Numbered from the stretch's first letter, positions 135 through 50,261 are shown. The stretch is 64,000 nt of DNA from a virus (IMGVR_UViG_3300033463_000007:159865-223864); one strand, 5' to 3'. The notes: generated from the letters alone by a model not told the origin. Program-made: numbers and translations.

Positions 135-1187
135 ATGGTAACTAATAATATACAAATGGCATTTGGTGCTTTAAAGCCAAAAAAAGATATTCGAGAATTT
201 AAGGCTATTACAAACAAAGCTGCGCAAGTTGTTGATATTCCAGATGAATTTGAATTAACTATGCCTCCTGTTAAATCACAAGGACAAGTAGGTAGTTGTG
301 TAGCTCATTCAATTTCTCTTGCTATAGAATATTATAATAAGTTGCAAGAGGAAACTGACATAACTTTTAGTACTGGATATATATATGGTAACAGACGAAA
401 TCAACGTGGGCATAACGGAAGCGGTATGTATGTTGATGCAGCACTTAGTGCTGTTGTTAAATGGGGAGATGTAGCTAAAGATAAATTTTCTGAAAATATA
501 GAAGTTCCAGAAGCTATTACATTGTTTGAAGAGCGTGCTTTTGATTTAGCTCCAGAAGCCTACCCGAATAGATTTACGGAATATTTTGCGCTTAAATCTG
601 ATGAACAAATTAAGTTAAATCTTATGCAAAATGGACCAGTTGTTTTTAGTATTCCATGATATAAGGATTATGCTGTAGAGGCAAAAACATATATATTAAA
701 ACATACTAATAATGCAACATCTGGCGGTCATTGTATGGTTATTTATGGCTGAAATAAGGATGGTTGAAAATTTCAAAATTCTTGGGGCACCTCTTGGGGA
801 AATAGGGGTCGTGCCATTTTGCCATATGGAACCAAAATGTCCACTTGTTATGGCATTAAAGATACAATTATGGCAAGAGCACATGAGAAACAATTAGCAG
901 AATTAAAAGAAAAGTTAGAGAAATTAACAGAAAATTTAGAAAATAAAGAAAAAGAATTACAAAAAACTATAGAAAAATTAAAAGTTCTTGATAAGAATAA
1001 TGCAGAACAAGCAGAAGAGCTTCAAGAACTTAAAGAATCTAAAACAGCTCTTACTAAAGAAATTAATAGTTTACAAAAACAGATTAAAGAATTGCAGATA
1101 CAAAATGAACAACTTGAAAGCCTAAGAGCAGAATTATTTGCAATTAAGAAACCATTTGAAAAAATGCCAAAATGATTAGTAAAAATA
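135..1187 (+). CDS. Papain-like (C1 family) cysteine peptidase with C-terminal coiled-coil; contains in-frame TGA codons read as Trp
   Basis: QGQVGSCVAHS Cys motif, GGHCMVIYG-W-NKDG-W-KFQNS-W-G His/Asn region where the three W are TGA; ORFs 135..659 and 819..1175 are in same frame and joined only if TGA is sense; coiled-coil KEKLEKLTENLENKEKELQK tail. Confidence 0.65.
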
Positions 1188-1240
1188 ATTAATGCTATTC
1201 TTAATTTATTTAATTAATTTATAAATGGAAGGTTAGTTAT

Positions 1241-2413
1241 ATGAGTATTGTTATTAATAATAGATCATATAATAATATAGATGCACTGAGAGTAAAATCT
1301 TTAGAAGATGGGGGATCTATTTCAGAAAAATGATTTTATTCTGCTGATAAGTCTCAGGCAAAAATAGGTGAACCATCTTCTTCTGAAATTAAAATAATTA
1401 CTCCGGATGTTAATTACGTATCATTGAGTCAAGTCACCATTCCGCAAATTAACTCTGTTAATTTAGACCCTTCTAAAATTCAGGCTGGCCAAACGATTAC
1501 AATTGGCTGAGCAGGGAATCCGGCTGCTTTATATTCTATCACTGGTACATATACTAATGATGCCACAGCAACAGAATATGATATTCGTAAGGGTAAAATT
1601 GCCTATGTAAAAGGGCAGCGATTAGTTGGTGTATTAACAAGTAGTGGCAGCGCCGGAGAAGAAACTTTAAAAATATCTTCTCTTGCACAATACCCGACAC
1701 GAAACGGTGAGGGTTATTATGACTATGCACAAATTCTGGATGATTCAGATGTAACTGGTTTAAAAGCAGAAAATATTGTTTGTGGAAAAACAATATTAAC
1801 TGATCTTTATGGCACTTTTGGTTCTTTAGCAATTCCATCACAAGCAGCAGATGAGGCTAGTATTCTAGAGGGTAAAGTAGCAAACGTCTATGTTTATAAT
1901 GAGGAAACAGGTGAAGAATCTCTGAGAACAGCTGTAGGTACTATTAGGACTTGGCCTGAAACAGTTTATAATCCTGATAAAAATAATGATAGAACAATTC
2001 CAGCCCAAAGATATATTGCTGAAGACTTAGTAATAAAAAAAGTTAATATAGGTCCCGTGGATTCACAAACACAACAGGTGACTGCTAATCAAATGTTAGC
2101 AGGTACTTCTTTGGCAGTCGGCTATGATGGCACGCCAGAGGGTCTTCTTAGTATAACTGGCACCATTCCCACAAATCCAAACTCTGGTTATACTATTACC
2201 CCGGGTACTTCATCAATAACACTTTCTGGCCCATCTTATATTAGTTCTGATATTACAATTATAGGTGATACCGATTTAGTTACTAATAATATACTGGAGG
2301 GTATTACTATTTTTGGTGTTACCGGAACTCTAAAATCAGAGGAGACTATTTATACAGAATTATGAACAAGAATATATGGTACTCCAGAGCCTGTGGCTGA
2401 AGCTATATTTTAA
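1241..2413 (+). CDS. Tail fibre-like repeat protein (TGTYT module family)
   Basis: RBS GGAAGG upstream of ATG; continuous frame through 4 TGA codons; repeated motif ITGTYTNDATATEYDIRKGKIAYVKGQRLVG shared with neighbouring genes. Confidence 0.5.
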
Positions 2414-2460
2414 ACTAAAAATAGTTTTCTAATAGATAATATTAAAAGGATATTAAAAAT

Positions 2461-5400
2461 ATGCCAACAAATAAAGAAAACTTTATAAATAAATTAAATA
2501 CCCTAGCTGATGCTGTTAAGACCAAGAGACCACTAGCTGAGGGTACGGATTATACTATTAATAATATTGTTGATGCAATTAGTAGTTGGGAGCTTAGACG
2601 AGCAGAAGAAAGCCCAACAGTTGATTTAGATTTATCTAATGGCAATCAGGTAATTATACCTACTGTAAGTGGTAATGTCTTATCTCAGGTCACTATTCGG
2701 CAACCGGTAGATCAGGAAGGCCATAATATATTTATTTCTGATAATATTAGGTCTGGAATAACTCTTGGAAATGTAACCGGAACTTATACAGCTGTAAATG
2801 AGAATGCTGTAACAGCTGCAGATATAAGATTTAATAAAAAAGCCTTTGTAAATGGTAGCGATGTAATAACTGGTTCCATGTCAGATTATAGTGGAACTAC
2901 TTTAATTGTTCCAACTTTTACAAATGGTACACCCTCACAGTCATCAACATCCCATATAGCTACACAAAATACTTTTGTAACAAGTAATATTAATTATGCA
3001 AATATTTGGTATTCAAATTTAGACCCCACAAAGATTCTTAATGGTGAAACAGTCAATATTGGCACTACTGATGATATTAGTACACCAAAAGTTACTGTTA
3101 CTGGTACTTACACTCCAGCAGTTGAAACTCTAATTCTTGACCAACCAAATGAACCCGGTGGTTTAAAACTTAATTATCAAAATACAGTTGGTTATGATTT
3201 ACCAGTACAAATTTTAACACACAGCCAAGGTAAATTAATAGAACAAGTTATATTATATCGTCCTGAAAATCTTATACCGGAAAATATTAAATATAATATA
3301 CCTATTGCAGGTACTGCTGGTACCTTTACAAGTAGTTCTACTGTTTCCAGTGGACAAATTGCGGCAACAGCTGATAAAATACGTTCTGGTTATTCCGCAT
3401 GGGTAAATGGTACTGAAATACAAGGTTCAATACCTAATAAAAGTGCAGAGGTTTATAATCCAACTATTGCATCGTCAAGTTCCGGCACAGCCACTTTAAA
3501 TCCTATAACAATTAGTTCTGGTCAATACTTAACTGGAAATCAAACGATTACAGCGACAGAGGTAAGAGGGTTAAATCCTGAATATATTGTTTCTGGGCAT
3601 AGCATTCAAATTGGCTATACACAAAATGATACTTTTAGACCAATTCATACAACACAAGGCTCTTACACAGGTATTGCTTCAGAATATATTGAGCCAACAG
3701 CTATAGAGTTTAATGAATTAATTTTCCGCACTACTACAAGTGGAATTACGATAGATTCAGATGTTGTAGTAAATCCAGAACCTGGGCATGCTTTTAGTCA
3801 GGTTAAAATTAAAAGGCCAACTGATATGTCTGCAGTTGCTGCAAAAATTGCTTATAATCAAACTATACACGGTATTTCTGGTACATTTTCTTATGAAGCA
3901 AATAATTCTATAACTGCCAGTTCAATTAGAAATGGCAAAGTTGGTTTTGTTAATGGTAATAAAATTATCGGTACAATGCTTGAGCGTGATGTCGGTAATA
4001 TTGGACTTTCTACTACAGATTATACAATAGCAGCAAATCAATATTTAGCAGGTGCTCAGACAATTTATGGTGCCAGAATAACAACCACGGATACTGGCGG
4101 TACAATAGCTGTTAATGATTTTAATGCTTTAGCCGGATTACTTGTTAAAGATGTAACTTTAGATATTGGTGATACTGGTGATACTGATAGACTTGCTCAT
4201 ATTGTTGGTACATATGATAACCAAAAACCGGAAGAAGTTGGAAATGTAACATTAAATTTCTGAGATTCAACACATTCAACTTATTATGATCAATTAGACA
4301 TTAATCCAAGCACACAAAATACAGTTTTTTCTCATGTTTTAATAAATAAACCAGCGACTTTAATTAAAGGAAATATTGCATCTGGAGTTTCTATCGCTGG
4401 TGTTACAGGTACTTATACAAATGATGCAAATGCAACATCAAGTGACATTTATCCTGGCAAAACTGCTTATGTACAGGGCACTAAAGTTTCTGGCAGCATG
4501 CAAACACGTGCCGCTGCAACAATTTATCCGAGTGCTTCAGACCAAACAATTGCTTCAGGTCGTTATTTAACTGGTACTCAAACAATAAAAGCAACGACTG
4601 TTAAAGCATATGACCCAGTATTACAAGAAACTGTTCCGTTAGATCCTGATTATATTATTAAGGGTGTTGTTGTAAAAGTTGGTGATGAAGTTAATAATGC
4701 TCGTGTTGCTAGTATAACTGGTACTTTCGATTATACTGAATTTATTGAAGGTCCAAGAGAAGTTGATTTATCATTAGCTTCTGGCAATCAAACTATAAAT
4801 CCAGAGGCCACTGGATATTCAATGAGCCAAATAATAATTAAGAAGCCCGTAAATTTATTAGCTAGTAATATTAAAAAAGATGTTGAAATTGCAGGTATTA
4901 CTGGAACATTTGAAGAAATAAAAGTATTAGAAATAGATGCAAATTACAATTCAGCATCAACTATTAATCTCACTACTGCACAAAAGAATGTTTTTACTTC
5001 TTTGGCTTTAGGTAGTACTATTAAATTAAAATTTACACAATCTAATAGTATTAAATATTTTACTAAAACCTATTCAAGCACCTCCGGTAGTGAAACATTT
5101 ATTGTTCTTACTGCACCAATTTCAAATGATTTTGAATGAAGTAATACTAAATATATTAGAACAAAAACTGAATTATGTTATATTGCTATTGCTAATAATA
5201 CAGCAGAATTACATTTGGTATATAAACAAGGCTCGTCTGCTGCTTTATTAGGTGAAATTAGGCCTAATACTGATCTTGTATTAGACCCAAGCACTGAAAC
5301 ACGTATTTATGATTATACAGATGCTACAATAGGTATTCCTACATCATTAACGGTTACAGGTCTTGCTTATACAGCTGTTCAACCAGAGCAGCTTTTACAG

Positions 5401-5688
5401 GGGACAACATTAAATATTGGAACCGCAGCGGATCCAGATGCGGTTTATACTGTAACAGGTACTGCTATATCAGAATATGACTTATATTCATTATTAAATA
5501 ATGCTAAATGGGGTAATTCTGGTGATCTTGCAGGTACAACTGTATTATTCTCTAATACACCTGAGCTCACAAATATTGGTACTAAAGCAGTTACATTTAC
5601 AGCTGGCTCTGATAACTATACAAGTTTAACAATTAATAATAATGAAATTAAATATAATGATACTCGTGTATATGGCGAAGCTGAGTAA
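2461..5688 (+). CDS. Large tail fibre / receptor-binding repeat protein (~1075 aa) formed by ORFs 2461..4263, 4498..5139 and 5215..5688 joined through TGA=Trp
   Basis: All three standard-code ORFs are in the same frame and separated only by TGA codons (4261, 5137); repeated x-I/V-TGT-Y/F-T beta-strand motifs; ends with TAA. Confidence 0.55.
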
Positions 5689-5703
5689 AGGAGAAATATA
5701 AAT

Positions 5704-7116
5704 ATGGCAAAAAGTTGACTTGCTGGAGCTTCAAAAAAAATTACGATAACTGGCGGAAATGACAGTACAAATACAGATATATTAAAATATATGCAATTAA
5801 ATGCAGGCTGAATACAAACACTAGCTACACCAGTATTATCATTAACAGACTTAGCTATTACTTGGCCAAGTGTAACTAATAGGACCTCTTATACTGTTTA
5901 TGTTAATAATCAGTCCTATCAAGATCAAGTAATGATAAATTCTTTTGATATATCAGACTTTACACCCGGGACTTATTCAATTACAGTAAAAGCTATTGGA
6001 AGTACTTATTATCAAGACAGTTCATTAAGTACACCTTTTGTATATACATACTTAACTGCTCCAACAAATCTTGCAATAACAAATGATACAACATTATCTT
6101 TTACAGGTTCTTCTGGTGCAACTCATTATAGAGTTATTGTAGATTCTGAGACAATTCTTGGTATTTGTAATAGTTCTCCAGTTGACTTAGCTAGTTTTCA
6201 AGGCTGGGGTAATCTGACAGCAGGTGGTCATACAGTACAGTTACAAGCATTTGCTGATAATGCACGAGATAGTCAAGTTTCAACGGGTGTATTAGTTAGA
6301 ACTGGTGGTTATAATTTAACAGTTTCTACTTGACAAGAATCTGGTGAAGATAGTGGTCAATTTCAAGTTTTATATTCAGATAACTCCTCTGCTTGAGTTG
6401 GCTCTGGTACAACTAAGCATGTTTTACAAGTACTAGACTATAGATATACTTGAGATTATCAACAATCTTGAGAAATTAATGATGCCCAGCCATCATTACC
6501 TTATACACTTGCTGCAAATGCCTCTGCCTCAGTTTATTCTGAATCAAGTGGTGGCGGTGGGACCTGCTTTATTGCTGGTACACAAATAACTCTTGCTGAT
6601 GGTACCACAAAAGCTGCTGAGGATATTACTTATGATGATTCTTTGTTAGTTTGAAATTTCTATACTGGTACTTTTGATACAGCTAAACCCTTATGAATTA
6701 AGAAAGAAGAATTATCACCCTGTTATAATTTAGTCACTTTTGACAATGGTAAAACAATTGGTTTTGTTGGACCTGGACAAGAGATCGGTTATCATAGAAT
6801 TTATAATAATGAAGCTAAACAATTTACACATACTGGTGTAGCTGATACACCGGTAGGTACAACTTCTTTTGATGTTTTTGGACAGCAACCAAAAATAGTA
6901 AGTCAAGAAGTTAAATGAGAAAGAGTAAAATATTATAATATAATAACAGATAAATACTATAATTTATTTACAAATAATATTTTAACTTCTTGTATGCTAT
7001 CTAATGAATATGAAATATTAGATAATATGACTTATAATATAAATAATAGATATTTAACAGATAAACAAATTACTGATTATCTACAAAAAATTGAGGATTT
7101 AAGACGTCCAAATTAG
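5704..7116 (+). CDS. Structural protein with fibronectin-III-like repeats and C-terminal Hint (intein/hedgehog-like) domain
   Basis: ATG with RBS AGGAGAAATATAAAT upstream; many in-frame TGA; motif GGGGTCFIAGTQITLADGTTKAAEDITYDD is a classic Hint block A; ends TAG at 7114. Confidence 0.45.
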
Positions 7117-7129
7117 AAAGGATATTATA

Positions 7130-7579
7130 ATGGTTTATATTTTAGAAGGTACACATGGAGTTGGTAAAACCGAACGAAGTACAACTTTTGGAGTTCCTGT
7201 TGCAAATATTAGAAATGATACTCGTGCAAGAAATATTACACAAGTAACCTCATTACTTAATAGTTATATTAATATAGATGCTGTATTTGATAGATTTTTT
7301 ATGCTATCTTTTCCAGGAGAAGATCATGATAAAAGGGTCTCCCAATGTATTGCAATTAATAATTATTTAAAAACTAGATCTGATGTAACTTGTATTTTAT
7401 ATATCTGTGACCGCGAAGTTGCTTGACAAAGGTATCAAAATACAGAACATCCAATTGAGCGACGCGTTGATAGAGCTGGTTTTGATGCAGCTTATAATTG
7501 ATATCAAGAAATTATTCCATATATGGATGCTTTTCAAATAATAGATACCACCAATGCCAGCAGTCATCATTCTGGCTAA
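7130..7579 (+). CDS. P-loop nucleoside/nucleotide kinase-like protein
   Basis: Walker A GTHGVGKT near N-terminus; two in-frame TGA (W) extend ORF 7130..7426 to TAA at 7577. Confidence 0.4.
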
Positions 7580-7602
7580 TAAGATATAGGAGATATTATT
7601 AA

Positions 7603-8382
7603 ATGCTAATAAGTGATTTAACAGGGACAACGTGGACGATAAACTCATCTGTAACGGCAACGTCGGGGCAATTCCGTTCCTCAAATATTGCTTTCACCGT
7701 TAACTACGGCGATGAGTGGAATGAAATCCGGATAGGCTATTATGCCTACCACCATGACCTCGTTGCTTCGGCAGACAGGGCGTGCGGTTTTAATGTTACG
7801 GTGGGCTTTTATTTTAACCTCGAAAACACGACGATAACCTTTACAGGCGGCACAGACGCCACCAACTCAACCCTCATCTCTTGGCTTGAAGCAAATGCTA
7901 CTAATGTTACGCCTGAACCAACACCAACAGAGAATATTTTGACACCCAAAGAGCAATTTTTTAAGAATATGAATGACCTTGCTCAAAGTATTATTGACAA
8001 AGCGGGTCTTGCAGCTGGCTTAAAAACGTTACAGGAGTTAAAAGAAGCTGTTGATGATATTGTTGTAGCCCAGGAAAGTGAAAGAAGGACATTATCATTA
8101 AATATGGCTAGCGGAGATCAAGTAGTTAACCCAACAGATGCTGATAAAGTAATGACACAGGTAACAATTACTAAACCAAGTACGTTTCTTGCAAGTAATA
8201 TTAAAGATGATATAGAAATAGGCGGAATTACTGGTACTTTTACTGACAGTACAACTGTTTCTACCGGACAAACGGCTGCAGCTGCAGGCCAGCTGTTAAT
8301 AGGATATTCAGCTTGGGTAAATGGTGTAGAAATACAAGGAACAATTCCAGTATATACTGGTGGAATTGTTACTACTGAATAA
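7603..8382 (+). CDS. Tail fibre-like protein, chimeric: GC-rich N-terminal module fused to conserved NIKDDIEIGGITGTFT C-terminal module
   Basis: C-terminal 90 aa nearly identical in pattern to 3300-3440 region of the large fibre gene; N-terminal 330 nt has strikingly higher GC and uses TGG for Trp. Confidence 0.5.
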   Translation: MLISDLTGTTWTINSSVTATSGQFRSSNIAFTVNYGDEWNEIRIGYYAYHHDLVASADRACGFNVTVGFYFNLENTTITFTGGTDATNSTLISWLEANATNVTPEPTPTENILTPKEQFFKNMNDLAQSIIDKAGLAAGLKTLQELKEAVDDIVVAQESERRTLSLNMASGDQVVNPTDADKVMTQVTITKPSTFLASNIKDDIEIGGITGTFTDSTTVSTGQTAAAAGQLLIGYSAWVNGVEIQGTIPVYTGGIVTTE

Positions 8383-8399
8383 TTTAGGAGTATAATAGA

Positions 8400-9200
8400 A
8401 TGGGAAAAAATATTTCTGTTAATGGCAGACAGTATAATTCAATAACAAAATTAAAAGTACAAAAAAATATATCTACAGAGAGCTATCATGTTTATGATTC
8501 TTATTACTCTGATGATTTATTTGAAAATACTAAATTAGTAGCGCCTTCTTTAGAGGTGCAGACAATTAACCCATCTGGTGATAATGTTGCTCTTAGTCAA
8601 GTAGTAGTACAAAGTATCGGAGCCGAAAATTTAATTCCAGAATATATTCAGGCGGGAAAAACAATTTCAATAAAAAGTAATGGTTTAGATGATAATCCTG
8701 ATTCATATCTTATGTCGGTTACAGGTACTTATACAAATGATGCAACAGCTACTGCTAATGATATCTTAGTAGGAAAAACTGCTTATATTAAAGGTGAAAA
8801 AGTTGTAGGTGCTAGATTAACTTCTGGTGGTATTATCCCAGAAGGTATTGCCTATATTACAACCACAGCACCAACTAATGTTTATAATTTTGCAGTTGCA
8901 AAAGTTGATAGCGAATTTCTTAGACCCGAAAATATTAAACAGGGTATAGAAATTTTAGGTAAAGTTGGTACTTATGGTGGTATCGATACAACAACTGCAA
9001 TAGATTTTTCAGCAGTTCATTTAGGCTATTTTTATAATGATGCTTTTTATACTGATAAAGCACATGTACATTTAATAGAGCCAGTTGATGGCAATACTTA
9101 TATGGATAAAGTATCTGCCAATGCTTATGATTATATAAATAATAGATATACTATTACCACGTCCTGGGTGGTAAATGTTGATCCAGCACAATTAGACTAA
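8400..9200 (+). CDS. Tail fibre-like protein (TGTYTNDATATANDILVGKTAYIKG module)
   Basis: Shares repeat modules with genes at 1241, 2461, 4376 region. Confidence 0.5.
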   Translation: MGKNISVNGRQYNSITKLKVQKNISTESYHVYDSYYSDDLFENTKLVAPSLEVQTINPSGDNVALSQVVVQSIGAENLIPEYIQAGKTISIKSNGLDDNPDSYLMSVTGTYTNDATATANDILVGKTAYIKGEKVVGARLTSGGIIPEGIAYITTTAPTNVYNFAVAKVDSEFLRPENIKQGIEILGKVGTYGGIDTTTAIDFSAVHLGYFYNDAFYTDKAHVHLIEPVDGNTYMDKVSANAYDYINNRYTITTSWVVNVDPAQLD

Positions 9201-9345
9201 ATGAATACAATTATTTTATGTTTAAAATAAAGTATTCAGTTTTATTGAATGCTTTATTTTATTCTTTTATTGTATAATATAATTGTATTTATAGGATCAA
9301 TAGAATCTGATAGATTCTTGATGATAATAAAGGAGTTTAATTTAA

Positions 9346-9951
9346 ATGGGTTTTTGTAAGACTTGTTATAAAGAAAAAATAAACCCTCAAGTTAAAGATG
9401 AAGATTTATCATATGAATTAGATGAAGCAATTTGTGAGTGTTGTGGAGAATTAAAGCATTTGGTAAAAATACCAGAAATTAAAGATCCAAACATAATGAC
9501 TGTTGCTGAATGTAATTTAGAAACACAAAAACATATAGAAAATGTTCGTAAATATATTAGATTTATTACAGATAAGTTGACACAGAGAGGTGTAGATCAT
9601 GATGCAAGTAAGATGGAATCACCGGAAGTTGAATTATTTGCACAATATACAAAAAAACTAGCCTCTTTAGTTTATGGTAGTGATGAATATAAAGCAAATT
9701 TAGAAGCTTTACAACCTGCACTAGAACATCATTATGCTACCAACAGACATCACCCAGAGCATTTTCCTAATGGAATAAATGATATGAATTTAATTGATAT
9801 TATTGAAATGTTTTGTGATTGGAAAGCTTCTTCTTTACGACAGAATGATGGAAATTTATTAAAAAGTATTGAGTTAAACACTGAGCGATTTAATATTGAT
9901 CCTCAGCTAAAACAGATTTTTATTAATACTGCTAATTTATTAGATGATTAA
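9346..9951 (+). CDS. Hypothetical protein, H-H...N-R-H-H...DM motif family (paralog of 34561..35124)
   Basis: LEHHYATNRHHPEHF...DMNLIDIIEMFCDWKASS resembles SWNHHYHHNKHHFQFWW...ESVCDMLGASKAY in the paralog; possible metal-dependent hydrolase. Confidence 0.35.
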   Translation: MGFCKTCYKEKINPQVKDEDLSYELDEAICECCGELKHLVKIPEIKDPNIMTVAECNLETQKHIENVRKYIRFITDKLTQRGVDHDASKMESPEVELFAQYTKKLASLVYGSDEYKANLEALQPALEHHYATNRHHPEHFPNGINDMNLIDIIEMFCDWKASSLRQNDGNLLKSIELNTERFNIDPQLKQIFINTANLLDD

Positions 9952-17141: not shown

Positions 17142-18131
17142 ATGCAAAGAATGTTATCAGGAATAAAACCTACCGGAACTCCTACTTTAGGAACTTATTT
17201 AGGTGCAATTTTACCCTTTATAAGATACCAAAATGAATATGAGCTATTTATTTTTATTGCAGATTTACATGCCTTAACAACTTGTCAAAATGCTAAAGAA
17301 TTAAGAGATAATATTAATTTATTAGCTAAGATTTATCTAGCTGCTGGATTAGATTGTGGACAAAATAAAACTGTATTATTTAAGCAATCTGATGTATTAC
17401 AACATAGTCAGTTAAATTGGATTTTAAGTAATTATACACTAATGAGTGATCTTGAAATGATGACTCAATATAAACAAAAATGTCAGCAACTTGCAGCTAG
17501 ACAAGGAGTTAATGTATCTTTATTTACTTATCCTGTTTTAATGGCTGCAGATATTTTACTTTATAATACAGATTTAGTGCCTTGTGGTCAAGATCAAAAA
17601 CAACATATAGAATTAACACACGAGCTTGCCCGAAAATTTAACTCTATGTATGGTGAAACTTTTAAACTACCAAAGCCATATATAACCAAAACCGGCGCTA
17701 AAATAATGAGTTTATCTGACCCGACTAAAAAAATGAGTAAATCAGAGTCAGATAAAGGAACAATTTATTTAACTGATACTAAGGAAGTTATTTTTAATAA
17801 ATTTAAAAAAGCTGTCACTGATAGTGAAGGAAAAATTTATTATAATCCAGAAACTAAGCCTGGAATAAGCAATTTACTTACTATTTATGCTGCAATAAAA
17901 GATATTTCTATTCAAGAAGCTGAAAATATATTTAAAGATGAAAAAGATTACGGTAAATTTAAAAATGAAGTAGCTCAGATAGTTTGGCAATATTTAGATA
18001 CATTACAGTATAATATAAAACAAATTTCTGATAAACAAATATTTTTAACATTAGATGATGGTCAAAAACAGGCAGCTAAAATTGCATCAGAAACTCTATC
18101 CAAAGTATACAAAAAGGTGGGATTAAGATAA
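17142..18131 (+). CDS. trpS: Tryptophanyl-tRNA synthetase
   Basis: Class I aaRS: N-terminal MLSGIKPTGTPTLGTYLGAI, KMSKS motif KKMSKSESDKG; 329 aa; no TGA codons. Confidence 0.85.
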   Translation: MQRMLSGIKPTGTPTLGTYLGAILPFIRYQNEYELFIFIADLHALTTCQNAKELRDNINLLAKIYLAAGLDCGQNKTVLFKQSDVLQHSQLNWILSNYTLMSDLEMMTQYKQKCQQLAARQGVNVSLFTYPVLMAADILLYNTDLVPCGQDQKQHIELTHELARKFNSMYGETFKLPKPYITKTGAKIMSLSDPTKKMSKSESDKGTIYLTDTKEVIFNKFKKAVTDSEGKIYYNPETKPGISNLLTIYAAIKDISIQEAENIFKDEKDYGKFKNEVAQIVWQYLDTLQYNIKQISDKQIFLTLDDGQKQAAKIASETLSKVYKKVGLR

Positions 18132-18134
18132 AAT

Positions 18135-19196
18135 ATGTTTGATAGGCTTGAAAGTATATTAAATAAATATGATGAGCTTTCAATGAAATTAAGTTCTTCA
18201 GAAATTATTTCAAGTAATTTATATCAGCAATATAGTAAAGAGTTAGCAGATATTCAAGAAATTGTTGATACTTATTCTGCTTATAAAGACGCACAGGATT
18301 ATTTAGAACTACTTAAAGAAGATGAAGCTAAAAATACTGATTTGGAATTAAAAGTACTATATAATAGTGAAATTAAAGAAACTCAAAGTAAATTATCAGA
18401 GCTAGAAAATAATTTAAAATTATTATTATTGCCAGCTAACAAGGATGATTCCAAAAATATTATTATGGAAATTCGTGCAGGAGTTGGCGGAGATGAAGCA
18501 GCTATTTTTGCAGCAGATCTTTTTAATATGTATTTAAAATATACACAAAAACAAGGTTGGAATGTTTCAGTTAGTAGCTATACTGAAGGTGTTCTAGGTG
18601 GTTTTAAGGAAATTATCTTAAGTATTTCTGGTAAAAACGTTTATCAAAAATTAAAATATGAAGGTGGAGTACATCGGGTACAACGAGTACCAGAAACTGA
18701 GGCTAGAGGCAGAATTCATACATCAACAGCAACAGTTGCAGTACTTCCAGAAAGAACAGAAACAGAAGTTATAATTGATCCAAAAGATATTACTATTGGT
18801 TTATTTCATTCCGGTGGGGCTGGTGGTCAAAATGTAAACAAAGTTGAAACAGGTGTACGTATAACACATATTCCTACCGGAATGGTAGTTGCTTGTCAAG
18901 AAGAGCGGTCACAGCTACAAAACAAAGAACGTGCTTTTGAAATATTGCGCGCAAAGTTATGGGATTATTATAATACTCAAAATATTAATTCTGAAATAAA
19001 CCAACGAAATAGTATGATTGGTACTGGTGATAGATCAGAAAAAATTCGAACTTATAATTTTCCGCAGCATCGTATAACCGACCATAGAATTAATTATACT
19101 ACTTATAATATAGAAGAAGTATTACAAGGTAATTTAGATGATTTAATTGAACATTTACAAATTGCAGAAAATGCAAAATTGTTAATTAATCAATAA
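18135..19196 (+). CDS. prfA: Peptide chain release factor 1
   Basis: GGQ motif (SGGAGGQNVNKVETGVRITHIPTG), PxT-type tripeptide region RVPETEARGRIHTSTATVAVLPE, C-terminal HRINYT; 353 aa; no TGA codons. Confidence 0.85.
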   Translation: MFDRLESILNKYDELSMKLSSSEIISSNLYQQYSKELADIQEIVDTYSAYKDAQDYLELLKEDEAKNTDLELKVLYNSEIKETQSKLSELENNLKLLLLPANKDDSKNIIMEIRAGVGGDEAAIFAADLFNMYLKYTQKQGWNVSVSSYTEGVLGGFKEIILSISGKNVYQKLKYEGGVHRVQRVPETEARGRIHTSTATVAVLPERTETEVIIDPKDITIGLFHSGGAGGQNVNKVETGVRITHIPTGMVVACQEERSQLQNKERAFEILRAKLWDYYNTQNINSEINQRNSMIGTGDRSEKIRTYNFPQHRITDHRINYTTYNIEEVLQGNLDDLIEHLQIAENAKLLINQ

Positions 19197-19232
19197 GATT
19201 AAAAGAGCCTGTTTTAGCCAGGCTCTTTTTTA
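19197..19232 (+). terminator. Rho-independent terminator after prfA
   Basis: AAAAGAGCCTGTTTTAGCCAGGCTCTTTTTTAT hairpin, followed by TTTGCTAAATTATATAG motif. Confidence 0.6.
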
Positions 19233-19269
19233 TTTGCTAAATTATATAGTAAATATGGAGGATTTTATT

Positions 19270-20127
19270 ATGTTAAAATTTAAAGTACCAAAGCAACAAG
19301 ATTTAGATTTAGATCAGTTGATTTTTGATAGAATTACTTTTGGCAATACACAACCATCACCAAAAGATGATCGAGATTATATTGCGCAAGCTAAAGATTG
19401 ATCTAAAATAAAATTTCCAAAAGAATATAGAGCACCAAAAACAGAAGTTTTAAATCAAGAAAATTATGGGTCTTGCGTAGCTCATTCTTGCGCCACCGCT
19501 TTAGCCCAAGGAGAACAACTTATTTCAAATACCCACAATAATTATTCTCGCGGTTATATTTATGGTAATAGAAAATCAACTGACTTGCAAACTGAGGGTA
19601 TGATTGTTAGGCAGGCATTAAAGCAACTACATAATTGTGGAGATGTTCTATATGATGATTTTCCATATAATAAAACTTATCCTATGGTAAAAGCTTTAAT
19701 TGATATTGATAGAGAATATTTAGCAAATAAAGCAAAGCAGTATACTATTTTTGATTTTTATAGGTGTTGTGATGAAAATCAGTTAAAAGATGCTATTATA
19801 TCCTCCGGTGCAGTTATAATTGTAGTTCCTGTTTATAGTGATTTTGCCCGTGATTTACATAAAACTCAATCATGGGAACTCCGAGGCTATCATGCAATGG
19901 CTTTAGTTGGTTGAACTGCTGATAAATGAATTGTACAGAATTCTTGAGGCTTAGAATGGGGTTATGATGGTTGTTTATTAATGGATATGGATTATCCCAT
20001 AATTGAAAGCTGAGGCATAACCGTTAATAAGGAACTTAAAAAGTCACTTTGATATAGAATAAAAACAATTTTTAAACAATTTTGAAATTGAATTAAATAT
20101 ATCTGAAATAAAATATTTAAAAAATAA
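19270..20127 (+). CDS. Papain-like (C1) cysteine peptidase, paralog of 135..1187
   Basis: NYGSCVAHSCATALAQ Cys motif, GYHAMALVG-W-TADK-W-IVQNS-W-GLE-W-GYDG with W=TGA; ORF continuous only under TGA=Trp. Confidence 0.6.
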
Positions 20128-20216
20128 TTTGCTAAATTAATTAGTAATGCAGTAACTGTAAAAAATCTATTATTAGCTGCATTAGTTTAATAATTAGAGG
20201 AGAGATTTAGAAATAA

Positions 20217-20663
20217 ATGGATACTTGATTAGTAACTATAATTTCATTAATCGGGAGCACTGCATTATCAACAATAGTTGGCTTAATTATAAAAAACAGC
20301 GTCTCTAAAAAAATGGATGAACAAAAAGAATTACTTGAACTTCGTGAATCTAAAGGGCATCAAGAGCGTAAGCAAGAAATGACAGAAATTATAAAAGCTG
20401 AGTTATTACCCGTTACACAGCAGCTTGATTCATTATCAGAAGCAATAAAAAAGAATAATGCCGGTACTGTTACATTATTAAGAGAGAGCTTAAAGCAATC
20501 CAGAGATCATTTAATGGAAAAAGGAGTTGCCACTGCCTCTGAAGTTGCAAGTTGACATGAACTATATAATACTTATGCAAAGCTAGGCGGAAATAATTTT
20601 AAAGATTATGTTGATGCTTGAAAAGATGATGTAGATGGGCTACCAAGAGAAAAAAGTAAATAA
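20217..20663 (+). CDS. N-terminal transmembrane protein with charged coiled C-terminus (holin-like / lysis accessory)
   Basis: MDT-W-LVTIISLIGSTALSTIVGLII TM segment; three TGA=W; preceded by TTTGCTAAATTAATTAG motif. Confidence 0.35.
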
Positions 20664-20692
20664 AATTTTTAAATATGGTAAAGGAGTAATGT

Positions 20693-21073
20693 ATGGAAAA
20701 ATTTAGTTTAATTTGTGATTTAGTTATTGCTATTATTGGGGTAATTCCAACAATTATTTCATTAATTTATTTAGTTAGAAATATTATAAAAAATAAAAAT
20801 TGGAATATGATCATGAAAATGGCAATGGAAGCAATGACTGCTGTAGAAGCTTATGCTATTGCTAATCCTAACATGACATCTGAGGATAAACTTAATATGG
20901 CATTAGAGGCTATCAAGAAAGCCTGTGGATCTGCTGGAATTACAGTAGATGATATTCTTATTAAACAAATTATTGATTATATTTCTGAAATGTGCAGCTG
21001 GGCAAAAACTGTTAATACAAATGTAGAAGTAGTTGAAGTTAAAACTGTTATGCTTGCAGCAAAAACAAAGTAA
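20693..21073 (+). CDS. Holin-like protein (LL-H type architecture)
   Basis: N-terminal TM LICDLVIAIIGVIPTIISLIYLV followed by amphipathic helices. Confidence 0.4.
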   Translation: MEKFSLICDLVIAIIGVIPTIISLIYLVRNIIKNKNWNMIMKMAMEAMTAVEAYAIANPNMTSEDKLNMALEAIKKACGSAGITVDDILIKQIIDYISEMCSWAKTVNTNVEVVEVKTVMLAAKTK

Positions 21074-21095
21074 TTTAACAGGAGGATTTATTTAA

Positions 21096-21461
21096 GTGTT
21101 TTATATTGCAGATAATGGAATTATTAAGCTGCATGCTGGTGATTCTGGAAATTTTCATTTTCAAATCAATATTGGTTCCACAATAAATCCTCAACCTTAT
21201 GCATTACAAGCAAATGATAAAATTTATTTTTCAGTAATGGAACCAAACCAGCCTTTTGAGCTTGGTGTTTTAAGAAAAATTTTAACAGTTGATGATTTAA
21301 TTGATGAAACAACAATTAATATTCAATTTATAACAGAAGACACTGAAAGGTTAATTCCTGGAATTTATTATTATGAAATGAAATTAGTGCTTATAGATAA
21401 TGAAGAAAATACTCATTATTACACTATTTGCCCAAAAACTAAATTTTATATTCTTGATTAA
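21096..21461 (+). CDS. Hypothetical protein
   Basis: ORF with RBS AGGAGGA. Confidence 0.3.
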   Translation: MFYIADNGIIKLHAGDSGNFHFQINIGSTINPQPYALQANDKIYFSVMEPNQPFELGVLRKILTVDDLIDETTINIQFITEDTERLIPGIYYYEMKLVLIDNEENTHYYTICPKTKFYILD

Positions 21462-21529
21462 AAATAGTTTATTTAAAAATTAATAGCCCTCTCCACTTTA
21501 GGGGGCTTTTTTATTCGGAGAGATACTTT

Positions 21530-23023
21530 ATGAAGAAGACAGATAATTATCAACAAAATATAGATGAAAATAGTGATAAAAATTTTGAATCAATTGGGTA
21601 TGATGAACCAATTGATTTATTATATAGTGAATTAGTTGCCTCTAAGGAAACACCAGAACAAGTAATTATTTATACTGATTTTACACGTAGAACAGAATTA
21701 CCTACTGAAAATGATAAATATGTTAAATCATATATTCGTGAAGCTGATGGCGGATGAAATTTAGCTATTAAAGGTAAGCCTACTCATGAATTATGCACTG
21801 TATTAAGTAATTGTGTAGGCTGAGCCGCTGGTAGATATAATGAAATTTATGATGAAATTAAAAATATCACAGGTCATCATTATCCTTATTTAGTTTGTAA
21901 TGCAGAGGATTTTCCAGTTCGAGCCAAAAAATCATATCCTGATATTATAATGGATCAAACTCCTGAACCTGGCGCAATAATGGTCTGAGAAGGTATTGGT
22001 AGTCTCGCAGGACATGTTGCTATTGTAGAAGAAGTGATAGATAATAATACTGTATATACTTCTGAATCAGGTTATGGTAGTACTATTCCAATGAGATACC
22101 AAAAAAGAGTTAATGATAATGGTTGTTGAGGCATGAACACAACAAATTATAAATTTACTTGCTTTATGCACAATCCAGCAGTTGAAAAAACTATTATTAA
22201 TATAGTGCAACCAGTTGAAAGAGATGTACTAATAGATCAATTATATATTGATACACCTAATTATTCATATATTAGAATGGATCATAGTACAGCTTCTAAA
22301 GCCATAGGGCAGTTTAAACAGGGATATTTTAATTATACCGATAGTTTTATTGGCGATGATTATGTTTGATATAAGCTTGCTGAAAATCAATGAGTTGCTA
22401 AAACAGGCCATATCCAAGTATATCCTAAAGTAAATCCAAGTATAGAAAAAATTGAATTGAATGAAGACTATACTAATACATATTATGCAGGTGATTTTTT
22501 ACAGTTTAAAATGATAGGTTTAAATTGCAAAGAATATTGAAATACCGGGGAAGTAAAAGATGTTGTTTATAATAATTATAAAATAATACCAGCAAATGGC
22601 ACAGCTTTAACTGTTAATGATACAAAAATTATTATTAATTTTGAAAATAATTTAACTCTTGAATTACCTCTTGAGATAAAAGTTAAGGTTGAGCCAAAAG
22701 TTGTAAAAATACAGCTTTCTGGCACGTATAAAACTGAATATTGAGAAGGCGAAAAACTTGATTTAACTGGTCTTATTGTTGAAGCAGTTTATGATAATGG
22801 TGAAATTACTTCATCTATACCTTATATTGCTTCACCACAGGCAAATAGTTTGTTACCATTTATGGGGACTCAAAACGTTGTAATTGCTGCTTATCTTGAC
22901 AACAAAGGATTTTCAACTTCTTTTAAAATAAATGTAAAACATAAACAAACTGCAGCCGAAAAATTCAGTCAAATGATACAAGCACTAGCTAACTTTATTA
23001 GAAGTTTATTTAATAAAAAGTAA
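21530..23023 (+). CDS. CHAP-domain peptidoglycan hydrolase with C-terminal Ig-like repeats (lysin / tail-associated lysin)
   Basis: CTVLSNCVG-W-AAGRY (Cys) and GAIMV-W-EGIGSLAGHVAIVEEV (His) CHAP motifs; many TGA=W; C-terminal KVVKIQLSGTYKTEY-W-EGEKLDLTGLIVEAVYDNG Big-like domain. Confidence 0.6.
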
Positions 23024-28430: not shown

Positions 28431-29456
28431 ATGTCAGTAAAAGATGCGTTAATAGCTACTCATTTATTTTTAGAAAACGACTACTTTTTTCGGTATATTG
28501 ATTTAATTGAAAAAAATAAAAATAGAGTAAAACAAAAGTATAAAACTCAAAAACATCATATTATTCCAGCTATTGCTTTTAAATTATATAATTGAGAAGG
28601 TATTGATGCACCAGAAAATTTAGTTAATTTATTATATAAAGATCATATTTTAGCTCATTATTATTTAGCTTTAGCTACTAAAACTTCTGATTTTCAATAT
28701 AAAATGATTGCTGCTATAAATTTTATTTTAGGTAAAGCTAAACAAAGTAAAATAGATATACAAGAACTACAAACTTTTATCTTAAATTTGGAAAATTATC
28801 AAAATTTATATGAAAATTGAATTAAAGAAAGAAGTTTATTACTTCACTCCAAATTATTAGGTCATGAAACTTCTGAAGAAACAAGAAAAAAAATAAGTGA
28901 AGCAAATAAAAATAAAATTTATATTTATAAAGAAAATATAGTACGTGCTGTTCATAAAGAAGACTTACAATTATTTTTAGATAATGGTTGAACTTTAGGA
29001 AATCCTAACTGTCAAAAAAGAAAACAGACCACAGGACAGACTATTATACATAAAGAAGAAATTGAAAAATATATTTTTAAAGAAGACTTATCTTTATATT
29101 TAGCTAATGGTTGAATATTAGGACGAAGTGACCAACATAAAAAAGCAACACAGCAAGGAACACAAGCTTATTATGATAAATTAACAAAAGAAGAAAAAAT
29201 TAATAAATGTGCAACTAGACAAAATCAACACTGAGAAATGTCAGAAGAAACAAAGAAAAAAATAAGTAATGCAAAGTCTGGAAAAAAGCAATCTGAAGAA
29301 CAAAAACTTTTAAATAGTCAAAATAAAAAAGATACAATTTGAATGACTAATGGTCAACAAGATATTATGATTAAAAAAGATTTAGAACTTTATTATTTAG
29401 ACCAAGGTTTTATTCGAGGAAGAACTAATTATAAAAAAAATAAAAAAGGAGAATAA
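28431..29456 (+). CDS. Free-standing HNH homing endonuclease with NUMOD3-like repeats (341 aa, 9 in-frame TGA=Trp)
   Basis: KHHIIPAIAF HNH core; repeated SEETRKKISEANK / SEETKKKISNAKSG (NUMOD3) and LQLFLDNG-W-TLG / LSLYLANG-W-ILGR repeats; preceded by TTTGCTAAATTAATTAG motif; invisible in the standard-code ORF track. Confidence 0.55.
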
Positions 29457-47080: not shown

Positions 47081-47285
47081 TTTTTATAAAAGTTACAGTA
47101 AAATTATTAGCTAAATTAAAAGAATAAAATAGCTAAGATAGAAAAAATAGCACAACCAAAGAAATTTGGTGTCGCAAAGCTAAAGGGCCCTTTCCGGGCA
47201 GCCAGTTGCTTCTAGGAGACATTACTCATGGAAGCTTTTATTTTATTTATATTTTATTAAAAATTTATATAAAGGGGAAAAATTT

Positions 47286-47927
47286 ATGAAATTAAGAAAC
47301 ACATTAGCACTTATTATGGTAGCAGCTATGCTTTGCTTTGTTGGTGTTGGCTTTGCAGCATGAACATTTATGAATATTGAAGATGCTGAAGTTAGTACAA
47401 TTCAGGATAAAGTTGCTGTCGGTATTGAATTAAATAATGGTTTTAAACTCTATAATGCAGCAGATGATGCTGAAATTACCGCACTTTATCTTATTTGTGA
47501 TGCTCCTGCTGGTGAAACAGATATTCTTAATGGCCAGGGTGTTTATTGGTCAACTTCTGCAACAGGTAAAGATGGTTCTGGTAATAAGTTAGCTGTTACT
47601 AATGTATATATTAAAGGTACATTAGCAAAAGCTGATGAAGACGGTGTCTGGGATAAAGCTACTGTTGATGTTGCATTTACAGCCGACTATACTGATTTAA
47701 GTTCAACTTATATTACTTTTGGTGTAGCTCCAACTATTGCTAATACTACTGGTATTACTGTTGCAAATAATGCAGTAGTTCAAAGTGCATCTTTTGTATT
47801 ACCTTCAGTTGCATATGTTGCAGCAAATCTTCCTCACAGTATTTCAGAGTTAACAGATATGAATACTGCCCTTGGAACAGACTTAAGCGGTACTGCTTTA
47901 AGATTTACAGCTCAAATTGTTGCTTAA
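47286..47927 (+). CDS. Secreted protein with signal peptide
   Basis: MKLRNTLALIMVAAMLCFVGVGFAA-W signal peptide; TGA=W joins to ORF 47370..47927. Confidence 0.4.
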
Positions 47928-47942: not shown

Positions 47943-48710
47943 ATGAATTCAATTACGATTATTACAATAGTCGTAGTTGCACTCTTAACCGTAGTTATCT
48001 TTGGGTTAGCCTGGTTAGGCTGGAGTTCTTGCCTAAAATTTTATAGAATTGAAATAAATTTAGGTAAGCATGATACTGAAATACTTAAAGAATATTGTTC
48101 TAAGAAGAAAAATAAAGGGGGACTGATTGGACTTATTAGTTCATACTTAGTCCTCCTTATCCTATTAGGACTATTTATAACCGGGATAGTTTATAAAATT
48201 AACGGTGAAAATTTTATTATCAACAATAAGACTGCCCTTGTAATCAAATCTGATTCAATGTCTGAATTTTTTGATGATGAAATAGCTAAACAATATCAAT
48301 TGTTAGATTATGATTCAGCATTACAATTTAGTATGGGAGATATTTGTATTTTTGAAAGGGTAACTGATAATACAAAATTAGTTAAGGGTGAAGTCTATGG
48401 CTATAAATATAAAAATATTATTATTACACATAGATTAGTAGATGAACCTATGAATGAAATTTATAGGTTTAGAGGCGATAATAATCCAGTTGCAGATCAA
48501 GTACTTATAAAAAAAGAAAATATTATTTATCATTATACCGGATATAAGATTCCAGGCTTTGGTGTTTTTATTTTATATGCTCAGTCATATTTTGGTATTT
48601 GGTCCTTGGTTAGTATCATTGGTGTAGCTATTAGTGCAGAAATTGTTTATCATAAATTAGATAATATAAATAAAAAGCATTATAGATATCTTGTAGAAAA
48701 TCGAGGCTAA
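47943..48710 (+). CDS. Signal peptidase I (S26)-like membrane protein
   Basis: N-terminal TM; KSDSMSE (SM catalytic Ser region) and RGDNNPVADQ (GDN box). Confidence 0.4.
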   Translation: MNSITIITIVVVALLTVVIFGLAWLGWSSCLKFYRIEINLGKHDTEILKEYCSKKKNKGGLIGLISSYLVLLILLGLFITGIVYKINGENFIINNKTALVIKSDSMSEFFDDEIAKQYQLLDYDSALQFSMGDICIFERVTDNTKLVKGEVYGYKYKNIIITHRLVDEPMNEIYRFRGDNNPVADQVLIKKENIIYHYTGYKIPGFGVFILYAQSYFGIWSLVSIIGVAISAEIVYHKLDNINKKHYRYLVENRG

Positions 48711-48714
48711 ATAT

Positions 48715-49695
48715 ATGAAAAATAAATTTTTAATTTGTATAATTAGTCTATTTACTATAGCTGCTTTATTTGGAACAACTTATTCTGCTTGATTATTCAC
48801 TGATGTCGCTATCGCCTCAAATCAATTTCAGGTTGAGGTACTTTCTTGAGTTTTTGGTGATAATGGTTTTGCTAAAATTGAAAATGTTCGAAATGGTACC
48901 AATGTAATTATTACAAAAGAAGAAAATATTACACAAAATAGTTCTGAAGCTATTAGAATGACTAGCACTACTGGAACATCTACAAAAGATCATATAATAA
49001 ATATTAATTTTGATCGTGATTATTATCTTTCAGAAATTCAGTTTTATAAATTTGAATTTGATTATTATCATAGATATAAAAGAGAACAGTATGATAAAGG
49101 GTTTCCTAAGATACAATTTACTATAAACAATTCAACTTTAGGAAGTGATCAGGGTGGAACTGACTATTGTACTGAAACCTCCGCCTTTGTAGTAACAGAA
49201 ATTGATGAAAATTGGTGACATTTAGAATATTATGTATTTGCTAATATGCCAACAATTGCTCGACATAGTGATACTCCAATTGCTTTAACTAAAAAAGTAA
49301 ATGGCGTTAGAATTACAGATCGAACTATGTATGATTATGCTGGTACTACAGCTTTTGTTATTATTGATAATATGCAATTTAGTGCGGAGCCCACCTCCAG
49401 ATTGGGCATATTTAACAGATGGACCGGAGATACTGCTGGAAATTATTTTTGGGTTAAAGTTGCATTTTCTGGGCAGCCACATTCAGTTAAGCTTTATTCA
49501 AGTGATACAAGCATAGCTGTTCCTGAATTTGATCCTAGCGATATAGTATCTACTTCATATCCGTTTCCTAATGGAAGTCCATTTTATGTACAATTTTTAA
49601 AAGCTGGTACAGTGACTATCACAGCTGTTTTGGAACTTGGTGATAATCATGAAATACAAACTATTAGTTATACTTATATAGTTACAGATCCTTAA
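48715..49695 (+). CDS. Secreted protein (signal peptide; ORFs 48958..49218 and 49246..49695 joined via TGA=Trp)
   Basis: MKNKFLICIISLFTIAALFGTTYSA-W signal; frame continuous through 4 TGA. Confidence 0.4.
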
Positions 49696-49775: not shown

Positions 49776-50181
49776 GGGGGTGTAAAGGTTTCGACAGGGT
49801 TAAGAAAGTGATAGTATACGCAGGAGTTATTCACCTTACGAATCGGTAATTTAAAATAAACGACAATACAATTGTTACTTTTAGTCCTTTCTTAATTAAT
49901 GCACTCTCTTCTATGAGGGCTGCTGCTTAAGATATTATAGGCGCCAAAACAATACGCTGGTGATCAAGCAAGTATTTGAGGTCAAAGAACGGGTCACATA
50001 AAGTTGTCCAACTTTAAAATGGACTGGTGGAGACGGATAAAACCGGCGCAACTCATTTAATATATTGAATTTGCTTATTTTACATTATATTAAATTATTT
50101 TATTAAATAAGCTAGTGCGTAAGTATTATACTATTTTAGTATTAATTTTGGACAGGGGTTCGATTCCCCTCACTTCCACCA
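49776..50181 (+). ncRNA. ssrA: tmRNA (ssrA) with long tag ending -AAA
   Basis: 5' GGGGGTGTAAAGGTTTCGACAGGG (cf. E. coli GGGGCUGAUUCUGGAUUCGACGGG), 3' GGACAGGGGTTCGATTCCCCTCACTTCCACCA; acceptor with G3:U70; tag ORF ...GAC AAT ACA ATT GTT ACT TTT AGT CCT TTC TTA ATT AAT GCA CTC TCT TCT ATG AGG GCT GCT GCT TAA = (N)DNTIVTFSPFLINALSSMRAAA. Confidence 0.75.
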
Positions 50182-50185
50182 ATGT

Positions 50186-50261
50186 CTGGGTGTAATTCAG
50201 TTGGTAGAATGCGTGATTTGGGATCACGATGCCGGATGTTCAAGTCATCTCACTCAGACCA
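50186..50261 (+). tRNA. tRNA-Pro(UGG)
   Basis: CTGGGTG-TA-ATTC-AGTTGGTA-GAAT-G-CGTGA-TTTGGGA-TCACG-ATGCC-GGATG-TTCAAGT-CATCT-CACTCAG-A-CCA. Confidence 0.7.

Follow-up and report, generated by a model that had tools for sequence, protein, structure and literature searches.

Gene content and genetic code of the locus

The subject of this study is a cluster of six genes (gB to gG) at positions 1241-9200 of a 64,000-nucleotide (nt) stretch of viral DNA, IMGVR_UViG_3300033463_000007:159865-223864, which is referred to below as the window. Four of the six genes (gB, gC, gF and gG) encode proteins that share a repeated sequence module, and a function as tail-fibre or host-adhesion components is the interpretation favoured here.

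Default calling of open reading frames (ORFs) with translation table 11 fragmented the genes of this region. Three-frame translation gave long frames that were broken only by TGA, and the residues around these codons were compatible with tryptophan; the default calls were replaced by calls made with code 4 (TGA = Trp). The window then resolved into compact genes, all in the same direction (table 1). These calls match public collections, and a protein library contains an identical gC protein of 1075 amino acids (aa; entry P0036).

The reading of TGA as Trp rests on several findings. In the second papain-family peptidase of the window the invariant Trp of the 'NSWG' motif is encoded by TGA (the paralogue gA has TGG at this position), genes for a tryptophanyl-tRNA synthetase (TrpRS) and a release factor (RF1), both in the standard code, are present in the window, the homology of gC to proteins of relatives continues through both of its TGA codons, and the same proteins occur in public collections. 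gC reaches its full length only if both of its TGA codons, at 4261 and 5137, encode Trp. The preliminary description of the locus had listed a fused gene of about 1075 aa; the gene is real under this reading, but a fusion is not needed to account for it because relatives have proteins of 808-2128 aa that consist entirely of modules.

Trp codons were unevenly distributed among the genes: all five in gF and gG are TGG, against 20 TGA codons among the 30 in gA to gE (P ~0.004). Since gF and gG use only TGG and gB to gE need TGA, recoded genes give way to standard-code genes inside the putative fibre cluster. The G+C content of the region is 32-34%, and the proteins are rich in Thr, Gly, Ser and Asn. 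In a scan for promoters and terminators the real sequence scored no better than shuffled sequences.

Table 1. Positions of genes and other features in the window. HMM, hidden Markov model.
Feature	Position (nt)	Strand	Description
gA	135-1217	+	360 aa; papain-family cysteine peptidase with coiled coil; 4 TGA
gB	1241-2413	+	390 aa; module gene; 3 in-frame TGA
gB sub-modules			aa 42-70 (M1a), 72-105 (M1b'), 105-132 (M2), 242-268 (M3), 346-365 (M1b); HMMs
gC	2461-5688	+	1075 aa (code 4); module gene; TGA at 4261 and 5137
gC tandem super-repeat array	2620-4914	+	Period 161-191 aa; HMMs and segment alignment
gC repeat starts	2620, 3193, 3745, 4279, 4762		aa 54, 245, 429, 607, 768
In-frame TGA, Trp601 of gC	4261-4263	+	Table 11 cuts gC here; alignments to relatives cross it
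In-frame TGA, Trp893 of gC	5137-5139	+	Code-4 translation
gD	5704-7116	+	470 aa; 9 in-frame TGA; outside the module family
gE	7130-7579	+	149 aa; P-loop-like motif (GTHGVGKT); outside the module family
gF	7603-8382	+	259 aa; zero TGA; module gene
gF half super-repeat	8095-8346	+	aa 165-248; M1a-M1b-M2
gG	8400-9200	+	266 aa; zero TGA; module gene
gG single super-repeat	8538-8978	+	aa 47-193; the C-terminal ~70 aa are unique
TrpRS	17142-18131		Zero TGA
RF1	18135-19196		Zero TGA
Second Peptidase_C1	19255-20127		9 TGA
Small protein	20217-20663		Apparently membrane-spanning; 3 TGA
CHAP-domain protein	21530-23023		8 TGA
Homing-endonuclease-like genes (NUMOD3; GIY-YIG)	28431-29456, 53102-53896		5-6 in-frame TGA, zero TGG
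c-di-GMP-I riboswitch aptamer	47139-47213		Rfam RF01051, 49.5 bits, above gathering score
tmRNA, then tRNA-Pro(UGG)	49776-50261		tmRNA: Rfam RF00023, 85.5 bits; ARAGORN tag peptide DNTIVTFSPFLINALSSMRAAA; tRNA-Pro(UGG) directly after it

A collinear repeat in four of the six proteins

Small HMMs were built for four sub-modules (M1a, M1b, M2 and M3) and were used together with a segment alignment to read the order of the modules. The consensus sequences are Q.I.P....SQV.I.kP for M1a, l.peNIk.G..I.G.tGT[YF]t for M1b, DA.At..DI..GK.AyV.G.kv.G for M2 and i.P....QTI..g.YLtG.QTI for M3; a variant, M1b', is M1b with an insertion of 10-15 aa. The order of these sub-modules is collinear throughout, M1a-M1b-M2-M3-M1b', and forms a super-repeat of about 160-190 aa. 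Copies vary solely in their number and in the sub-modules that are absent, and the different orders described earlier were not observed. Both recurrent motifs of the preliminary description were recovered at their places: TGTYTNDA.AT..DI..GK.AY starts at about 1541 (gB), 4405 (gC) and 8721 (gG), and NIK....I.G..GTFT...TVS.GQ.AA.A....GYSAWVNG.EIQG.IP occupies 3283-3434 (gC) and 8197-8348 (gF).

The four proteins combine the super-repeat with different ends. In gC a helical N-terminal segment (residues ~1-49) is followed by 4.5 tandem super-repeats and about 255 C-terminal residues, which hold one more M1b'-like copy; the fifth repeat consists of M1a-M1b only, while the other repeats have all five elements. 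gB, a paralogue of gG, has a short beta segment at its N-terminus and then two degenerate super-repeats. gF carries an N-terminal domain of its own (residues 1-110), a helical linker homologous to the N-terminus of gC, and half a super-repeat. As read from the sequence, this is a fibre-type layout, with a conserved attachment end, a repeated shaft and a variable distal domain.

The gB, gC, gF and gG proteins are paralogues. Composition-corrected blastp aligned gB with gG (39% identity over 227 aa, E 5e-26), gC with gF (42% over 107 aa, E 1e-19), gC with gG (41% over 86 aa, E 4e-10) and gB with gC (51% over 39 aa, E 8e-8), and the corresponding Smith-Waterman z-scores, computed against shuffled sequences, were 36, 22, 9 and 6.5. 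No relationship to the module proteins was detected for gD or gE (z ~0-1). The modules are thus common to four of the six genes, and not to five consecutive ones as had been thought.

The repeats are also visible in the DNA, well above the background. A self-blast of 1200-9300 returned ten hits of at least 30 bits, compared with a mean of 0.4 and a maximum of 3 in 30 codon shuffles, so that the earlier observation of internal repeats holds. The top hit scored 61.7 bits (154 nt at 69%), and another repeat extends over 69 nt at 78%. Among module copies, protein identity is 30-65% and DNA identity 60-78%, the latter over at most 154 nt; the best pairs reach 54-65% at the protein level, the top one 65% over 34 aa. 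The copies are therefore old, and "near-identical", as they had been called, does not describe them.

The nearest neighbours of the gF sub-modules are in conflict, M1 being closest to gC repeat 5 (54%) and M2 to gC repeat 2 (65%). This weak mosaic trace points to ancient exchange or duplication only. Sub-types of M2 were seen again in unrelated phages, suggesting that they are conserved flavours rather than products of local shuffling.

The two genes outside the module family were considered separately. The gD sequence reads as FN3-like segments, then a Hint-like C-terminal domain extending from 'GGGGTCFIAGTQITLADG' to NNILTSC, and then a tail of 40 aa. This would be a self-processing domain of the Hint or intein type, for which support from Pfam is weak: the family Hom_end_hint gave E 0.024 and 15.1 bits, below its cut-off of 32.1 bits, and over the N-terminal block only. 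Residues 12-43 of gD resemble residues 77-108 of gF (a 31-aa motif; z = 6 at 39% identity), and the two proteins may share a docking motif here. It was also considered that gC and gD might be a single gene split by a TAA codon that is read through; this was rejected, as gD begins at an ATG and an AAGGAG ribosome-binding site of its own, and the C-terminus of gC compared with gF gave z = 0.9. Family searches with gE gave no match.

Distribution, structure and genomic context of the repeat

No Pfam family matches gB, gC, gF or gG, and NCBIfam gave zero matches. PHROG 38337 matched gC (E 2e-21), gG (1e-13) and gB (2e-8), and gF joins this group via gC (E 1e-19). Matches of the repeat in PHROG were limited to 38337 and 13589, both of which are listed as 'unknown function'. 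A profile made from six copies in the window retrieved 7,568 cluster representatives at E<=1e-3 (2,288 at E<=1e-10), with up to 21 module copies in one protein. When 8,000 candidates were scored in a word-indexed profile search, 5,794 of them reached E<=1e-10; of the 120 proteins listed, none had a functional name. In many family members, as read from their sequences, the unit M1b-M2-M3 is arranged in tandem with a period of about 85-90 aa. Family members elsewhere have C-terminal LRR_5, LRR_8, Kelch, RCC1, FGE-sulfatase or Lcl_C domains. The module was also found in chromosomal signal-peptide proteins of metagenome-assembled Tenericutes and Bacilli genomes, and it is accompanied by DUF285, LRR_5 and DUF6273 domains in proteins on apparently bacterial contigs.

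Sequence searches of the PDB with gG, gC, gD and a segment of an upstream protein gave no match, tblastn of gC against an annotated phage collection returned a single match, which was unannotated, and the motif strings led to no relevant publication in the full-text literature.

An AlphaFold2 monomer model of gC residues 602-830, based on a 54-row module alignment, had a mean predicted local distance difference test (pLDDT) score of 74. Model residues 30-160 (gC 631-761, covering M1b-M2-M3-M1b') were confidently predicted with pLDDT 86-96, and consist of short beta-hairpins in succession with a 3-10 turn before each. The model of gC 1-600, which was made with 11 homologues, was unusable (pLDDT 42). 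A Foldseek search of the super-repeat model against the PDB gave no fold match (best E 1.6). Against BFVD, Foldseek found only sequence-related 'Tail protein' entries of uncultured gut Siphoviridae and Myoviridae, with 21-52% identity.

Three TGA-rich genes are located just before the window on the same contig (L036, 1-6516), and encode proteins of 1153 (partial), 801 and 700 aa. The 801-aa protein has a Laminin_G_3 domain and matches PHROG 26670, 'virion structural protein', at E 6e-11; the gene of the 700-aa protein contains 16 TGA codons. Motifs picked out by eye in these proteins ('QTISGAKTFS' and 'EKANVRTNIGAG' in those of 1153 and 700 aa, and 'LGAASYSWDKLYISG') look fibre-like, a lead that no tool confirmed. 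The use of two upstream protein segments in tblastn gave no useful match. From 135 to ~12000 the genes encode the peptidase, the fibre-like proteins, the Hint-like and P-loop proteins, and DUF5662, thymidine kinase and Metallophos proteins, and no recognised baseplate or tail gene occurs within ~8 kb of the cluster in this phage.

The position of module genes could be read in several other genomes. A homologue (P0251), from a 157-kb phage whose portal is of the T4 type, shares the helical N-terminus of gC and continues with modules. The gene order in this phage is Peptidase_M23, GPW_gp25, a Dockerin protein, proteins of 974 and 412 aa, Phage_fiber_rpt, P0251 and Peptidase_C1, and the last of these, directly after P0251, is 33% identical to gA. 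In the Dulem viruses 35 and 36 the tail module ends in genes with the repeat, labelled 'tail protein', and the lysis genes follow; in a Clostridium genome such genes lie in an apparent prophage tail region, as judged from ORFs alone. Two relatives of the phage studied here encode all-module proteins of 2122/2128 and 808/830 aa beside the same peptidase. The interval between this peptidase and a conserved Metallophos-PhoH block differs between the two genomes, one having a gene for a 165-aa protein and the other genes for 308-aa and LRR_5 proteins.

A papain-family peptidase adjoins module-bearing, fibre-like genes in three phage lineages (gA in the window; L006, L008 and L011). The gA protein combines its coiled coil with a hydrophobic C-terminal helix, and a second copy of the peptidase is present in the lysis-like block of the window. 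The role of gA could be in fibre processing, in degradation of the host surface or in lysis.

Probable role of the module proteins and history of the copies

These results suggest that gB, gC, gF and gG are probably tail-fibre or host-adhesion components with a shaft built from the repeat. They would be paralogous late structural proteins of a large TGA-recoded phage of the 'Jade' type; late or structural status is supported by the presence of TGA codons in gA to gE, as in the genes of the CHAP, Amidase_2 and second Peptidase_C1 proteins. According to the structure model, each sub-module may contribute a 3-10 turn and a beta-hairpin, which would stack into an elongated, beta-rich shaft segment, and the number of repeats (4.5 in gC, about two in gB, one in gG and 0.5 in gF) would set the length of the fibre. 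Attachment to virion and host surface would be provided by the parts outside the repeats: a helical N-terminus in gC and gF, a beta N-terminus in gB and gG, C-termini that are unique in gC and in gG, and the N-terminal domain of gF. We infer that these proteins are present in the virion, act as fibres in an oligomeric state, and bind a receptor. The family probably originated by old tandem and gene duplication, with no reshuffling at present.

A receptor-binding or tail-fibre family had already been proposed in the preliminary description, and this is still the best-supported reading, on the basis of context and not of a match to a recognised tail family. Several observations weigh against it. 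The four proteins match no tail, baseplate or fibre family in Pfam, NCBIfam or the function-bearing PHROGs, and the 'tail protein' labels of their homologues come from automated pipelines. A confident monomer model does not itself indicate a trimeric fibre, and Foldseek recovered no fibre fold from the PDB. The module is not phage-specific because it is present in chromosomal proteins of Tenericutes and Bacilli, and gF and gG, which lack TGA, may be regulated apart from the recoded late genes. Gene order in other phages is divided on the fibre reading: module genes lie in tail or baseplate modules in the Dulem viruses and in the 157-kb phage, but in the closest relatives (221-kb contig) the genes on either side of the cluster belong to nucleotide metabolism and not to a baseplate, so that it forms an island.

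The same observations bear on the alternative that the module is a general extracellular adhesin repeat and not part of a tail fibre, i.e. that the proteins decorate the capsid or neck, or are displayed or released as non-virion proteins that bind mucus, matrix or cells. The occurrence of the module in bacterial signal-peptide proteins, its association with DUF285, LRR_5 and DUF6273 domains on apparently bacterial contigs, the distance of the cluster from baseplate genes in the closest relatives, the readability of gF and gG in the standard code and the confident monomer model all speak for such a function. On the other hand, the upstream neighbours look like virion proteins, the gene is found in a tail or baseplate module wherever its position in a phage is readable, and gB and gC carry TGA like the structural and lysis genes. 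An adhesin of this kind is therefore considered unlikely, although it retains appreciable weight. A compositional artefact, in which Thr/Gly/Ser/Asn-rich, AT-rich coding imitates homology and the long ORFs are read through true TGA stops, would fit the low G+C content, the residue bias and the fragmentation of the genes under table 11. It has next to no probability and is refuted by composition-corrected E values down to 5e-26 and z-scores of up to 36 against shuffles, ten DNA self-hits where codon shuffles gave 0.4, 7,568 independent proteins that match the profile, and the evidence for recoding (the NSWG Trp, the TrpRS and RF1 genes nearby, and homology across the TGA codons of gC).

According to the preliminary description the locus is a recombination-driven diversification cassette. 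In an active cassette of this kind near-identical modules would be swapped among paralogues and the host range switched; known examples are shufflons, Gin/Cin-type inversion, gene conversion and diversity-generating retroelements based on reverse transcriptase. Paralogues with shared modules do lie side by side, the two parts of gF have different nearest repeats in gC, and contigs of two independent assemblies (ENA ERZ27256849 and JGI 3300028832) start at 5241-5243, inside the C-terminal part of gC; strain variation, or breaks in assembly caused by repeats upstream, may account for these starts. In another genome (L015 3705-7832; ENA ERZ27271029, a standard-code contig of 232 kb) the N-terminal repeats of three adjacent paralogues with modules look about 90% identical by eye and the C-termini differ, two with DUF6273 and one without, which is the cassette-like pattern expected from that description. 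At the locus studied here, however, the copies are too divergent to offer long identical tracts for homologous exchange and their modules are strictly collinear. Of the upstream genes and those between 135 and ~12000, none was found to encode a recombinase, an invertase or a reverse transcriptase, and no template/variable repeat pair or near-identical repeats able to recombine were present at the locus. Long inverted repeats were absent, those found being at most 28 nt, 71-95% complementary and at chance level. Four other metagenome assemblies differed by one single-nucleotide polymorphism over 5241-9678, the span of this population comparison; a Logan contig, identical to the window over 18.4 kb, is the only one to cover 1241-5240, and an exact-DNA search of IMG/VR and JGI metagenomes with the start of the window gave no match. 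Active reshuffling is thus very improbable and is largely refuted for this locus.

The fibre reading can also be compared with known systems of variation. The likeness to Gin/Cin of Mu and P1, to shufflons and to the retroelements of Bordetella BPP-1 is one of idea only, i.e. several alternative host-recognition modules at one locus; unlike those systems, the locus has no invertase, reverse transcriptase, template/variable pair or long inverted repeats. The FGE-sulfatase fold, a domain which some family members carry elsewhere, is that of the variable protein in some diversification systems based on reverse transcriptase.

Jade phages, in which TGA is recoded to Trp, have predicted Firmicutes hosts, and their recoded genes are structural or lysis genes (bioRxiv 10.1101/2021.08.26.457843); the passages of that preprint returned by a term search contain no mention of this fibre gene family. 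The phage studied here is assigned to this type by its recoding and gene arrangement. As in the Jade phages described in those passages, TrpRS and RF1 genes precede a lysis block, recoded structural and lysis genes form separate islands, and the G+C content is low. The TrpRS and RF1 genes, in the standard code, are directly upstream of the TGA-rich lysis-like block and form with it a 'code-change operon' (17142-23023). No TGA suppressor tRNA was found in the window, and one may sit elsewhere in the genome, which is apparently ~232 kb long; a tRNA search of the window identified tRNA-Pro and tmRNA only. The in-frame TGA codons of the homing-endonuclease-like genes indicate that recoding is not confined to structural and lysis genes. 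Downstream of the riboswitch aptamer, the genes at 47286-47927, 47943-48710 and 48715-49695 encode proteins with hydrophobic, signal-peptide-like N-termini.

The repeat is the same in its sequence modules as the 'tail protein' repeat of uncultured gut Caudoviricetes (PHROG 38337/13589; Dulem 35/36; BFVD A0A8S5SXF5). The Dulem proteins match the same PHROGs, and helical or beta N-terminal segments are common to both sets. In contrast to that repeat, four paralogues occur here in a TGA-recoded phage and contain an extra M1a and the M1b' insertion, and the period is 160-190 aa compared with the ~85-90 aa of 'GDANL...GDANL' seen by eye in many other members. Sequences of the family are plentiful, but it is without a curated description, experimental function or solved structure.

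Classical fibre proteins such as T4 gp34 and gp37 and lambda Stf are long and consist of short beta repeats; their attachment ends are conserved, their distal ends vary, and their genes occur as paralogue clusters near baseplate genes. The module proteins resemble them only as the same kind of object; in contrast to them, gB, gC, gF and gG have no match to Phage_fiber_2 or Phage_fiber_rpt and no fold match. The locus is probably, in kind, an ordinary cluster of phage fibre paralogues with an uncharacterised building block. A wider proposal is offered tentatively and is rather doubtful: M1b-M2-M3 may be an undescribed, autonomous beta-hairpin domain that serves as fibre shaft in thousands of gut phages and also occurs in surface proteins of Bacilli and Tenericutes, and, with the code boundary inside the cluster, different fibre paralogues of this phage may be made before and after the code switch.

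These results reveal no new mechanism of diversification, and place a probable host-range determinant in a TGA-recoded late-gene island. About 130 confidently modelled residues of the repeat form a compact target for structural biology. Most host-recognition proteins of uncultured gut phages lack annotation, and definition of the repeat as a domain family would allow annotators to mark genes of many phages and prophages as probable fibre or adhesin genes.

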